Positions 2,176 through 4,955 of a DNA stretch of 4,955 nucleotides are shown one piece after another. The DNA comes from a virus. Lineage: Duplodnaviria; Heunggongvirae; Uroviricota; Caudoviricetes. The number at the start of each line of letters is the position of its first letter. The first letter of the stretch is position 1. A program made the position numbers and the translations under genes. The DNA lies in IMG/VR virus record IMGVR_UViG_2667527789_000016; one strand, written 5' to 3'. A model generated the notes under the pieces. The model was given only the letters and a program-made list of their open reading frames with translations. It ran no database searches and was not told where the DNA came from.

Positions 2176-2388
2176 GTGGAGTTACTTGTGAACCTAATCA
2201 ATTCTCAAGAAAAAATGACCCGCAAAGAAGCCGCCGAGCATTTGGGGGTAAGTGTCCAGACTCTTGCTAACTGGGCGCATACTGGCAAGGTAAAAATCCC
2301 TTTCCATAAGCTGGGGCGCAAAGTGCTGTATATGCGCTCTGATCTCGATACTTATCTTGCATCCACTCGCAGAACGCAGACAGCGTAA
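2176..2388 (+). CDS. Small HTH DNA-binding protein of the excisionase/AlpA/Vis type (start may be the in-frame ATG at 2215)
   Basis: The sequence TRKEAAEHLGVSVQTLANWAHTGKVKIPFHKLGRKVLYMRSDLDTYL fits the excisionase-family HTH pattern (helix-turn-helix, then a Gly-Arg wing, then an acidic DxxL motif). It lies immediately downstream of the integrase, as in many integrative elements. GTG 2176 has a weak AGG at 2168-2170; ATG 2215 has no clear SD. Confidence 0.75.
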   Translation: MELLVNLINSQEKMTRKEAAEHLGVSVQTLANWAHTGKVKIPFHKLGRKVLYMRSDLDTYLASTRRTQTA

Positions 2389-2408
2389 GGGGGGAGCGAT
2401 GCACATAA

Positions 2409-2434
2409 CAAAAAGCGCCCCGTTACCGGAGCGC
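2409..2434 (-). other. GC-rich hairpin (GCGCCCCG-TTAC-CGGAGCGC, 7 of 8 bp) with a U-run on the minus strand; terminator-like in minus orientation, possibly also serving the upstream plus-strand gene
   Basis: Stem 2415-2422 / 2427-2434. The plus strand has CAAAAA (2409-2414) before the stem, so the minus-strand RNA has stem followed by UUUUUG. Contains the CGCCCCGTTAC motif repeated at 2891-2923. Confidence 0.35.
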
Positions 2435-2530
2435 CCTTGCGAACAATTAACCTGCTGCGAAAAAATTGGATCAGTGCAGGGGAATTATATCAACTGTGTG
2501 AAGAAGCGCCACAATTGCCGGATAACAGGC

Positions 2531-2558
2531 AAAGAAAAGGCCACCTGTCACGGTGGCC
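2531..2558 (-). terminator. Rho-independent terminator of the minus-strand small gene
   Basis: Stem GGCCACC (2539-2545) / GGTGGCC (2552-2558) with a 6-nt loop. On the minus strand the stem is followed by TTTTCTTT (complement of 2531-2538). It sits about 30 nt downstream of the stop of the 2769..2590 gene. Confidence 0.55.
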
Positions 2559-2589
2559 AATGTGATCAGTGTGGTGGTTTGCTGGTGGA

Positions 2590-2769
2590 TTATTCCGCTT
2601 CTTTGGTCTTGCGGCGCTGGCGGCGTTTTATTTCGCCGCGCATGGCAGTAACGATAAATTGCGCGTCTGTTTCGTTTTCTTCTTTTACCAAATTCATTTC
2701 ACTTAAAACGTCTAGAGGTACTCTAGCTGTTTTTTGTTGTGACTTGTTGTTTGTTGTACCTGTTGGCAT
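2590..2769 (-). CDS. Small basic protein (59 aa), putative DNA-binding regulator of the element (candidate repressor); function unproven
   Basis: ATG (complement of 2767-2769) is preceded by AAGGAG at 8-nt spacing (complement of 2778-2783). Protein is MPTGTTNNKSQQKTARVPLDVLSEMNLVKEENETDAQFIVTAMRGEIKRRQRRKTKEAE with a strongly basic tail. It has its own terminator (2531-2558) and is divergent from the plus-strand operon. The longer 117-aa ORF (to 2943) would run through the operator and hairpin region and is not favoured. Confidence 0.6.
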   Translation of the reverse strand: MPTGTTNNKSQQKTARVPLDVLSEMNLVKEENETDAQFIVTAMRGEIKRRQRRKTKEAE

Positions 2770-2795
2770 CTCTGTTCTCCTTACTGTTAGGTGGT

Positions 2796-2835
2796 GTTCA
2801 GTATACGGAGAAAAAAAAATAAAAAAAGACTTGAA
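2796..2835 (-). promoter_or_regulatory. Candidate promoter for the minus-strand small gene (-10 TATACT, T-rich upstream tract)
   Basis: Minus-strand TATACT (complement of 2800-2805) lies about 30 nt upstream of the ATG. A long T-tract on the minus strand (plus-strand A-run 2809-2827) could act as an UP element. No good -35 hexamer, so this is weak. Confidence 0.3.
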
Positions 2836-2880
2836 GTGCAAGTCACCTAAAAGTAATCTAGATTTCAAGGTGACTTGCAC
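2836..2880. promoter_or_regulatory. Operator-like perfect inverted repeat GTGCAAGTCACC-N21-GGTGACTTGCAC with a perfect palindrome AATCTAGATT in the spacer
   Basis: Arms 2836-2847 and 2869-2880 are exact reverse complements (12/12). The spacer holds a 10-bp perfect palindrome at 2855-2864. It lies in the divergent intergenic region between the small regulator gene and the plus-strand operon. Confidence 0.45.
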
Positions 2881-2883
2881 CAA

Positions 2884-2923
2884 AAAGGCAACGCCCCTTA
2901 CTGTTGGGCCAGTAACGGGGCGT
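2884..2923 (-). other. Long GC hairpin (13-bp stem with one bulge, 6-nt loop) followed by a U-run on the minus strand; terminator-like or leader RNA structure
   Basis: ACGCCCCTTACTG (2891-2903) pairs with CAGTAACGGGGCGT (2910-2923). The plus strand has CAAAAAGGCA before the stem, giving UGCCUUUUUG after the stem on the minus strand. Shares the CGCCCCGTTAC motif with 2415-2434. Confidence 0.35.
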
Positions 2924-2959
2924 CTAACCACAAACGATAGCAATAGTATCGAGGTAGCT

Positions 2960-3166
2960 ATGTTAAATCATATCACACACCCGCAAGGGCGGGACTCACA
3001 CAACCTGAATAAATACATCTGGCGTTTTATCGCCCTGAGCACGGCACAACCGCGCGTAATCCACATCGAGGCCACCAGCGAACAGGAAGCACGCCAGCAA
3101 TCCCCGGCTGGCTGCGTGATGGTATTCGCTGCCCGTATTCGCCAGGAGGTAGGCCATGTGCAATAA
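2960..3166 (+). CDS. Hypothetical small protein (68 aa), first gene of the plus-strand operon
   Basis: ATG 2960 with GAGG at 2951-2954. It is the in-frame tail of the 2357..3166 ORF after excluding the part that overlaps the regulatory region. Its stop overlaps the next gene start by 11 nt. Confidence 0.45.
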   Translation: MLNHITHPQGRDSHNLNKYIWRFIALSTAQPRVIHIEATSEQEARQQSPAGCVMVFAARIRQEVGHVQ

Positions 3167-3395
3167 AACCACACCGGACGCAGCAGCCGCCGCGCTCACT
3201 ACGCTGATGCACGCGCTTATTGATATTTCTGTTATTGCTGACATGGCGCATAAGCACGCCACCAGTGAAACAGAATATGCAGGGGCTTTCGTTCCTCATT
3301 CGCTGGCGGTTATGCAACTTAGTGCTGATATGGCTCTGAATGAGGCCAAAGCTATCCTGATTGCTGATTGTGAAAATGGGGGGGGTTATGCGTGA
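3156..3395 (+). CDS. Hypothetical small protein (79 aa)
   Basis: ATG 3156 preceded by AGGAGG (3144-3149) at 6-nt spacing. Overlaps the upstream and downstream ORFs in a coupled arrangement. Confidence 0.55.
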   Translation: MCNKTTPDAAAAALTTLMHALIDISVIADMAHKHATSETEYAGAFVPHSLAVMQLSADMALNEAKAILIADCENGGGYA

Positions 3396-3849: not shown

Positions 3850-4149
3850 ATGAAACTTAAATATTCTGGCTTAACTGCCAGTGGCAACACTCACCCTAAA
3901 TTTACGCGCGGTGATATTTACCGCGACCAGTACGGCGGCACGGTAATGATTAAGGGCGTGGCGGGACGGTGCGTAACTTACCGCCGTGAAGGTTACGAAT
4001 ATGATTGCGTGATGCCTGTTTATCAGTTCCGGCGTGATTTTTCTCTGGTACAGACCGCGCCGCATAACGTGCCCACCAGCAACGCCAGGGCACGGGCAAA
4101 CATCCAGAAGCTGAAAACCATGATTAACGGATTCAGGGGTAAACAATGA
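3850..4149 (+). CDS. Hypothetical protein (99 aa)
   Basis: ATG 3850 with GGAG at 3836-3839. Its stop overlaps the start of the downstream ATPase gene (ATGA at 4146-4149). Confidence 0.55.
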   Translation: MKLKYSGLTASGNTHPKFTRGDIYRDQYGGTVMIKGVAGRCVTYRREGYEYDCVMPVYQFRRDFSLVQTAPHNVPTSNARARANIQKLKTMINGFRGKQ

Positions 4150-4955
4150 AACTGGCACCGAACGTAAAACGATTACCGAAAGACAAATACACCGATGCGA
4201 TTATTTTTGCGGGTATTGATGCTCACTCATTCGCAGAGCATTACATCATTGCACAGGCCAAAAAAGCAGGCGATCCAGTCCCTCCCGTTTATCTGGGGCG
4301 TTATCAGTTAAGCGAACTGGATAACCTCCAGATTGTTGATGATGGGCGATACAGGGCGACGGTGATACGCGCCGGAAATATTGAAGAGCCGCAGCTGTTA
4401 ACCATCGCCACGAAACTGGCGATCGCCGGAGTCCAGGAGGCGCGGCTACTTTCTGAAAATTTCGAATTGCTGGAGGAATGGAGCGACCAGCTTCCACGGC
4501 TTAGGGAGGCATGGGAACGCGGGGAAAGCCTGGTCATGAAAAAAATCCCCCAGCGAAAAACCACGCTACCGATGAGCGTTGGATCTACCGGATACGACAC
4601 ACAGCTTGATTACGTGGTAAAGGGGATTATTCCGGCATCGTCGCTTTGCAGCATATACGGGGCGAGCGGTTCCTATAAATCATTCCTTGCCGGATCGTGG
4701 GCGTGTCACGTTTCCACGGGCCGCCAGTGGGGAGGCCGCAGGGTGGCGCATGGCGCTGTTCTCTATGTGGTTGGTGAAGGCGGTATCGGCGTTCCGCGTC
4801 GTGTAAAGGCCTGGGAGGTTGTGCACGGTGAGCAGGTGAAAAATCTGTATCTGGTAAACCGTCCCATCTTTCCGGCTGTCCCGCTTGATGTTGATGAACT
4901 GATTATTGCTGCCAGTCAGGTGGAGAGGGAAACAGGTAAACCTGTTCGCATGATT
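4146..4955 (+). CDS. RepA-like AAA_25 family P-loop ATPase (putative replicative helicase of the element), 3'-partial, preceded by an uncharacterised N-terminal domain of about 125 aa
   Basis: ATG 4146 with AGGGG at 4135-4139. The open frame runs to the window end (270 codons). Residues DYVVKGIIPASSLCSIYGASGSYKSFLAGSWACHVSTGRQWGGRRVAHGAVLYVVGEGG match the RepA/AAA_25 pattern (a 'DY/WLVKGLLP...' motif, then a Walker A-like GxxGxxKS, then '...VLYV..E'). Family assignment is from memory of that pattern, not a search. Confidence 0.8.
   Translation, partial: MKLAPNVKRLPKDKYTDAIIFAGIDAHSFAEHYIIAQAKKAGDPVPPVYLGRYQLSELDNLQIVDDGRYRATVIRAGNIEEPQLLTIATKLAIAGVQEARLLSENFELLEEWSDQLPRLREAWERGESLVMKKIPQRKTTLPMSVGSTGYDTQLDYVVKGIIPASSLCSIYGASGSYKSFLAGSWACHVSTGRQWGGRRVAHGAVLYVVGEGGIGVPRRVKAWEVVHGEQVKNLYLVNRPIFPAVPLDVDELIIAASQVERETGKPVRMI

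Follow-up and report, generated by a model that had tools for sequence, protein, structure and literature searches.

The central paradigm of gene control in Gram-positive PICIs is a master repressor, Stl, that is relieved by helper proteins. Gram-negative PICIs are recognised by an integrase gene followed by alpA, a replication module, the lack of lysis and tail genes and, often, capsid and small-terminase genes. Dual control by a protein and an RNA is exemplified by pMV158, where the repressor CopG and the antisense RNAII together set the copy number. Ribbon-helix-helix (RHH) proteins have a beta-alpha-alpha fold, the N-terminal strands of which pair in the dimer to read the major groove. To our knowledge no function has been assigned to the YlcI/YnfO family, a part of the E. 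coli y-ome, and our literature search found nothing relevant on it. Gene expression and induction of the PICIs EcCICFT073 and EcCIMP1 require AlpA (PMC6092414; PMC11773190). Later surveys described AlpA, Bro-N proteins and the C4/isrK RNAs, but not the YlcI/Icd-like module (PMC10111431).

The DNA analysed here, a viral stretch of 4,955 nucleotides (IMG/VR record IMGVR_UViG_2667527789_000016; the window), comprises the left part of a phage satellite of the PICI type. It encodes a tyrosine integrase (1-1425), an excisionase/AlpA-type HTH protein (2176-2388) and, listed between these two, a 206-aa ORF. The leftward gene of a 59-aa protein of the YlcI/YnfO family (2590-2769, minus strand) is separated by a 190-nt gap from a rightward operon, which starts with an Icd-like gene (2960-3166, plus strand; NCBIfam phage_ICD_like, E = 6e-20) and continues with a DUF4222 gene and a RepA/AAA_25 helicase gene. 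Thus int, the AlpA-type HTH and the RepA/AAA_25 helicase of Gram-negative PICIs and cf-PICIs are all present, and the window ends before the late region. Relatives with the same left part carry genes for SSB, major capsid, decoration protein and TerS and lie beside tRNA genes. Annotations of the Icd-like protein conflict, PHROGs giving a transcriptional repressor (phrog_6196, E = 4e-43) and NCBI a host cell division inhibitor. The segment from alpA to the stop of the ylcI-like gene (2399-2569) is annotated as a truncated Icd-like pseudogene in the near-identical locus L001. Within it, 14 nt of a hairpin at 2411-2438 are 93% complementary to part of the terminator of the antisense RNA described below (2909-2922), and the segment may be the relic of a second or inverted icd/antisense module.

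The gap between the divergent genes contains an inverted repeat and, nested within it, a palindrome. Both had been reported in the initial annotation and both were found where it had placed them. The arms had been described as 12 bp with a 21-bp gap; their perfect complementarity held, while a repeat finder extended each by one base inward to 13 nt, GTGCAAGTCACCT (2836-2848) and AGGTGACTTGCAC (2868-2880), 100% complementary across a 19-nt spacer. This is the longest spaced inverted repeat of the whole window. Dinucleotide-preserving shuffles, 300 of the whole window and 3000 of the 190-nt intergenic region, gave arms of at most 11 nt, and because none reached 13 nt the repeat is well above chance. 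The 12-mer has no further copy in the window even with up to 3 mismatches. Exact copies of the repeat are carried by 11 viral contigs and by 10 E. coli genomes. In each of the eleven contigs, where the loci span 5.6-14.6 kb and in several cases the entire contig, and likewise in locus L094, its 11-mer core occurs exactly twice and nowhere else. Chance symmetry of AT-rich intergenic DNA, for which nothing speaks in the case of the outer repeat, is contradicted by the shuffles and by the exact conservation, and its probability is practically nil.

Because a strict sigma-70 scan of positions 2300-3200 called no promoter, the promoters were defined by comparison of relatives. The comparative set consisted of 91 loci encoding relatives of the 59-aa protein (L numbers) and several annotated E. 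coli elements, with 66 distinct sequences. All of the about 90 relatives share a single layout between the leftward ylcI-like gene and the rightward Icd-like/replication operon. Rightward from the ylcI-like start follow a Shine-Dalgarno sequence, a site O3 together with the leftward -10, an A-rich tract, a -35, a site O1, a -10 and a site O2. The -35 of the rightward promoter P_R is TTGAAG (2831-2836, plus strand; TTGAAG, TTGACG or TTGAGG in 63 of 66 distinct relatives), and O1 begins with the last G of this hexamer. The -10, TAATCT (2854-2859, plus strand), lies 17 nt past the -35; TAnnnT was found 16-18 nt past the -35 in 65 of the 66 distinct relatives against a background of 5%. The -10 of the leftward, ylcI-like promoter is TATACT (2800-2805, minus strand) and reads TATACT, TATATT, TATAAT, CATAAT or TATGCT in 66/66. 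These conserved hexamers on both sides bear out the earlier placement of the repeat in a divergent promoter region. Between the back-to-back promoters lies an A/T tract, A9 T A7 (2811-2827), A-rich in all lineages, which may act as an UP element or a bend. The -35 region and part of O1 form a 6-bp hairpin on the minus strand (2828-2844; GACTTG/CAAGTC) that runs into T7AT9 and scored as terminator-like. Its pairing is specific to the operator class of the window and likely incidental, the A/T tract itself being conserved.

The nested palindrome AATCTAGATT (2855-2864), a perfect 10-bp dyad, overlaps the -10 of P_R. The window contains 5 palindromes of 10 bp compared with a shuffle mean of 5.3, as expected of chance symmetry, and the chance of finding one in that 21-nt stretch is about 0.011. 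In the nearest relatives with identical arms the spacer is AACCTAGATT or unrelated (gtagcataaccctcaa), and the palindrome is broken or absent. Thus it is the hexamer TAATCT plus four bases that mirror it by chance. The suggestion that the inner dyad serves a second regulator had to be given up, since it is not conserved and coincides with the -10 that is; nothing marks it as a site of its own.

O1, the left arm, has the core GTGCAAGTCAC (2836-2846) and occupies the spacer between the -35 and the -10 of P_R. O2, the right arm, has the core GTGACTTGCAC (2870-2880) and extends from about +2 to +14 relative to the predicted start of P_R (about 2866). In every lineage a GTG-N5-CAC site follows immediately after the -35. 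The 11-mer core of O2 is positioned 10-11 nt past the -10, as in the class of the window, or abuts or overlaps it (-3 to +1), and this applies to 66/66 distinct relatives. All sites fit GTG-N5-CAC or, in some classes, TGG-N-CCA, and their centre is lineage-specific; examples are GTGCAAGTCAC in the window, GTGCGATTCAC, GTGGGCCACAC, GTGGATTCCAC, GTGTAAGACAC, GTGTATTTCAC, GTGGCATTCAC, GTGGTGTTCAC and GTGGAGCACAC in other classes and TGGTACGTACCA in L093. The candidate O3, GTGGTGTTCAG (2791-2801), overlaps the leftward -10 and the predicted start (about 2793) and is degenerate with 6/11 matches to O1. The position of this third site is conserved and it ends in CA(G/T) across relatives. Of the 16 lineage classes, about half have an O3 that agrees with O1 at 9-10/11; in the others, the class of the window among them, the agreement is 3-8/11. 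Although it matches its own O1 and O2 at only 6/11, the O3 of the window has exactly the sequence of the operator in L011, which belongs to a distant class (GTGGTGTTCAC); this divergence could be the trace of a recombination event, or a sign of autoregulation that is weak or has been lost.

The orientation of the sites is not fixed. Loci L025 and L026, which encode a protein with the same strand signature (RQKTARVPL), carry two copies of GTGCAAGTCAC in the same orientation, with their centres 22 bp apart. Each arm is therefore an autonomous site. Direct repeats were also seen in the GTGCGATTCAC, GTGGTGTTCAC and GTGGGCCACAC classes, and so the inverted repeat of the window is a pair of pseudo-symmetric sites arranged head to head. 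A single dimer bridging two half-sites, as an inverted repeat at first suggests, is ruled out by the direct-repeat lineages. The distances between the centres of the 11-mer cores cluster at 22-25 bp and 34-36 bp; in the window 34 bp between the cores correspond to 32 bp between the 13-nt arms. An operator of this kind, with two to three short sites in either orientation in or beside the core promoters, is what would be expected of an RHH repressor.

The direct repeats also tell against the view that the repeat is not bound by a protein but forms an RNA or DNA hairpin (cruciform, terminator, attenuator or processing site). The perfect 13-bp stem would be very stable, and the small 6-bp hairpin with its T-run is predicted nearby on the minus strand (2844-2828). 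Yet the sites are direct and unpairable in L025, L026, L003, L006, L011, L029 and the class of EcCICFT073, the arms change between lineages as whole units together with the protein and not by pairwise compensatory drift, and the 19-22-nt loop contains the conserved -10. A rightward transcript would contain O2 only, since P_R is predicted to start between the two arms. Arms that are complementary in all homologues and transcribed together, as in a terminator or attenuator, were not found. We consider a hairpin role exceedingly improbable.

As candidate binders the initial annotation had named the 59-aa protein and the Xis/AlpA-like protein or a helper-phage factor. The sequence of the repeat tracks the first. 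Operator class agreed with YlcI-like clusters at 80% identity with an ARI of 0.89 and an AMI of 0.91, and with the signature of YlcI-like residues 11-19 with an ARI of 0.91 (13 signatures, 11 operator classes); thus, as in RHH proteins, the specificity residues of the predicted beta-strand covary with the operator. Operator class and Icd-like cluster were nearly independent (ARI 0.07). The Icd-like gene is as near to O2 as ylcI is to O1, yet it does not covary. This argues against a CI/Cro-type switch with the Icd-like protein as a Cro-like partner on the same operators, which the divergent promoters with their shared multipartite operator of three sites, resembling lambda OR, and the Icd-like matches to phrog_6196 and phrog_1743, both annotated as transcriptional repressor, would have suggested. 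L013-L016 have the same arms with Icd-like proteins that are only 45-52% identical, whereas L079-L086 have different arms with Icd-like proteins 91-95% identical. We rate such a switch as very improbable.

AlpA was assessed in the same manner. It is needed for expression and induction of EcCICFT073 and EcCIMP1 (PMC6092414; PMC11773190). Some target near the operon must exist, and the repeat could be this target with AlpA (2176-2388) activating the rightward promoter. However, the repeat is not inherited with AlpA. In L001 the int/alpA segment has 98.7% DNA identity to that of the window, but the small protein encoded there is HicB-like instead of YlcI-like, and the place of the repeat is taken by another perfect inverted repeat of 13 nt, GTACGTACGTAAC / GTTACGTACGTAC. 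Conversely, L094 has the repeat and ylcI of the window with a different integrase and, in the position of AlpA, a protein without BLASTP similarity to that of the window. L037 and L062 encode an AlpA that is 95% identical and belong to other operator classes. Moreover, sites in the core promoter spacer and over +1 are positions of a repressor, not of an activator, and no copy of the site is present near the alpA promoter, which is reportedly autoactivated by AlpA. AlpA is thus quite improbable as the binder of the repeat. E. coli E47 (H2), a complete element in which the same operator had been expected, proved to have a YlcI of another class with another operator.

A host or helper-phage protein might also bind the repeat, its association with the ylcI-like gene being genetic linkage only. 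PICI induction depends on the helper phage (PMC6092414), and sequence data cannot fully part linkage from function. On the other hand, more than 10 operator classes, each with its own beta-strand signature, occur in one host species and island family, unlike what a common host factor would produce, and the recombination boundaries lie outside the unit of gene and sites on both sides. For LexA (SOS) the box was sought as the 16-mer CTGT-N8-ACAG and as TACTG-N10-CAGTA. The candidate TACTG...CAGTA at 2782-2803 was rejected because it has 12, not 10, intervening bases (between CTG and CAG, 2784-2801), and the arms of the repeat do not resemble a LexA box. We regard a host or helper protein as unlikely and the 59-aa protein, on the strength of the covariation, as the likely binder of the sites.

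The homologues of the 59-aa protein have 57-62 aa with an invariant helix B (AQFIVT...EIKRRQR), while variation is concentrated at residues 2-6, 11-14, 17 and 19. A profile of 41 homologues was compared with P22 Arc by hhalign, the Arc sequence having been checked against the PDB. The strand and helix A were aligned with E = 2.9e-4 and a probability of 41%, pairing Q12, T14 and R16 with the DNA-reading residues Q9, N11 and R13 of Arc. Pfam gave no match for the protein of the window even at E = 10, PDB searches with the protein and with its profile returned nothing usable, and Foldseek with a predicted monomer model found no match. The protein is probably an Arc-like RHH repressor. Downstream of the ylcI-like stop a hairpin with a T-run resembles a terminator (2539-2558, minus strand). 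An Rfam search of the whole window gave only a sub-threshold isrD-like match at 2533-2573, which reflects the terminator shape alone.

Taken together, we think it probable that O1 and O2 are operator copies for the divergently encoded 59-aa YlcI/YnfO protein, which as an Arc-like RHH repressor would silence the replication operon. Bound to O1, the repressor would fill the spacer of P_R between TTGAAG and TAATCT, and bound to O2 it would cover the transcription start. Occupation of both sites, perhaps cooperative at a distance of 32 bp or about three helical turns, would exclude RNA polymerase and keep the Icd-like/replication operon silent while the satellite is integrated. The weaker O3 over the leftward -10 would provide negative autoregulation. 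Specificity would reside in the N-terminal arm and the beta-strand with Q12, T14 and R16, and with more than 10 specificity classes gene and sites would therefore form a portable immunity cassette. Repression might be overridden by AlpA or the helper phage; for AlpA one may speculate about read-through from alpA across the convergent repressor gene.

A second layer of control is predicted next to O2. A cis-antisense RNA of about 80 nt (2881-2960, minus strand; ends predicted) would cover the start codon and Shine-Dalgarno sequence of the Icd-like gene in a SymR-like layout. Its predicted terminator hairpin (2890-2925, minus strand) is followed by a U-rich tail reaching to the edge of O2, and a candidate -10, TATGAT after TGA, lies inside the first Icd-like codons (2967-2972, minus strand). 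In an alignment of 30 sequences (A2) T21 and T26 never vary and A22 hardly does, despite differing Icd-like N-termini. The fold of the hairpin was more stable on the minus strand in 49 of 52 distinct relatives, with summed energies of -1313 kcal/mol compared to -1007 kcal/mol on the plus strand. G-U makes up about one fifth of the hairpin pairs when the minus strand is folded, where the plus strand would have A-C mismatches, and because of these G-U pairs the RNA was assigned to the minus strand. Next to the hairpin is a conserved CTAACCA (plus strand; UGGUUAG in the RNA). The minus-strand alignment of the 30 sequences showed a 5' segment pairing with the UGGU of UGGUUAG, a small hairpin with an anti-Shine-Dalgarno sequence, a 13-bp terminator and the U-rich tail. 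Compensatory changes were present in 9 of 17 pairs. Paired cells amounted to 96.7% as against 85.6% in shuffles, none of 500 of which reached the observed value, and to 34-53% when the partners were slid.

The antisense RNA is absent from Rfam 15, the window gave no match to SymR, C4 or isrK, and the literature search found nothing relevant on an antisense RNA of Icd-like genes in satellites. On the antisense strand SymR was matched below threshold in L007, L006 and L011 (33-36 bits, gathering score 61). A focused Rfam search of 2860-3010 gave non-significant matches only, the best being the R1162 antisense RNA with 16 bits and E = 1. This R1162/IncQ match (2889-2961, plus strand) shares GCG(C/U)CUAACCA...GAGG...AUGGCU, and the replication gene of the satellite (4146-4955) encodes an IncQ-type RepA helicase (AAA_25); the two may reflect a shared ancestry of leader/countertranscript control. 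A direct repeat of 13 nt with a single mismatch, CCTTACTGTTAGG / CCTTACTGTTGGG (2779-2791 and 2896-2908), was considered as a means for the leader RNA of P_R to pair with the ribosome-binding site of ylcI. It is probably due to chance because L013 and L094 keep the 5' UTR with a different hairpin sequence.

The same ylcI/icd module was found in the prototype EcCICFT073, where the YlcI-like protein C_RS30120 belongs to the QALK class (that of the window to the QQKT class), O1 and O2 are both GTGGGCCACAC and O3 is GTGGGGGACAG. The locus is L097 8474-9053 (E. coli CFT073, NC_004431 1380473-1381052), and its ylcI-like and Icd-like genes carry the late-added tags C_RS30120 and C_RS30125. The annotation on which the published functional studies originally relied may have lacked both. 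The module was matched in 1338 of 5426 complete E. coli genomes, i.e. about one quarter. Some relatives have Rfam matches to C4 antisense RNA above threshold (L013 883-1087, L029 883-1087, L074 994-1192), L074 also to isrK; c4-a1b1 in L013 and L029 reached 45.5 bits, just under the gathering score of 46.7. These matches are on the minus strand of the loci, which is the plus orientation of the window, 400-600 nt right of the ylcI start and downstream of the Icd-like gene; they have no counterpart in the window. The rightward operon thus exists with and without P1/P4-type immunity RNAs.

It is possible, and we put it forward tentatively, that YlcI/YnfO is the master or immunity repressor of Gram-negative PICIs including EcCICFT073, with a three-operator switch, more than 10 exchangeable specificities and the new cis-antisense small RNA as a backup. 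AlpA would then override or bypass a block, e.g. by read-through from alpA, and would not be a simple activator. A pair of repressor and operator is ordinary in kind, but neither this class of elements nor the YlcI/YnfO family has a described case, and the control layer is undescribed for phage-parasitic islands of E. coli. The analysis provides a concrete candidate repressor with mapped candidate operators, also in the tractable prototype EcCICFT073, and with it a first hypothesis on what YlcI/YnfO proteins do. Satellites that share a cell may fall into 'immunity groups', and an unannotated, predicted antisense RNA has come to light that would guard a putative cell-division inhibitor.

Among the known systems Arc/Mnt of P22 immI is similar in that a small RHH repressor (53-83 aa), as the 59-aa protein would be, is encoded beside back-to-back promoters with operators in the core promoter, and Arc shares the sequence similarity in the strand and helix A noted above. 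Arc, however, binds one 21-bp operator as a dimer of dimers, while the family of the window has two to three separate sites of 11-13 bp, 22-36 bp apart and in either orientation. Furthermore, immI belongs to a phage and the present locus to a satellite. With CopG and RNAII of pMV158 the locus would share the dual control of a replication operon by an RHH repressor at the promoter and a countertranscript over the leader or ribosome-binding site of the downstream gene. Yet CopG is the first gene of the repressed operon whereas the ylcI-like gene is divergent, and the predicted antisense RNA would target the Icd-like gene, not an initiator. Lambda OR is similar in the divergent promoters, the three operators of graded similarity, a probable autoregulatory site and exchangeable immunity cassettes. 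In contrast to CI the putative repressor is probably not an HTH protein and has no SOS-cleavable domain, and the window has no analogue of Cro because the product of the first rightward gene does not covary with the operators. As in the SaPIs, phage-inducible islands in which the leftward gene of the repressor Stl/Rpr diverges from the operon for excision and replication (PMC6092414), the ylcI-like candidate repressor is encoded leftward, but Stl proteins are large HTH proteins relieved by helper-phage proteins, of which none is known for the satellite of the window. Finally, the predicted RNA resembles SymR/SymE and the c4-icd-ant system of P1 as a short cis-antisense RNA near the start codon and over the ribosome-binding site of a potentially toxic gene. 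It differs from C4 of P1, which is co-oriented and acts in trans, and true C4/isrK elements are located elsewhere in some relatives (L013, L029, L074) rather than in the window.
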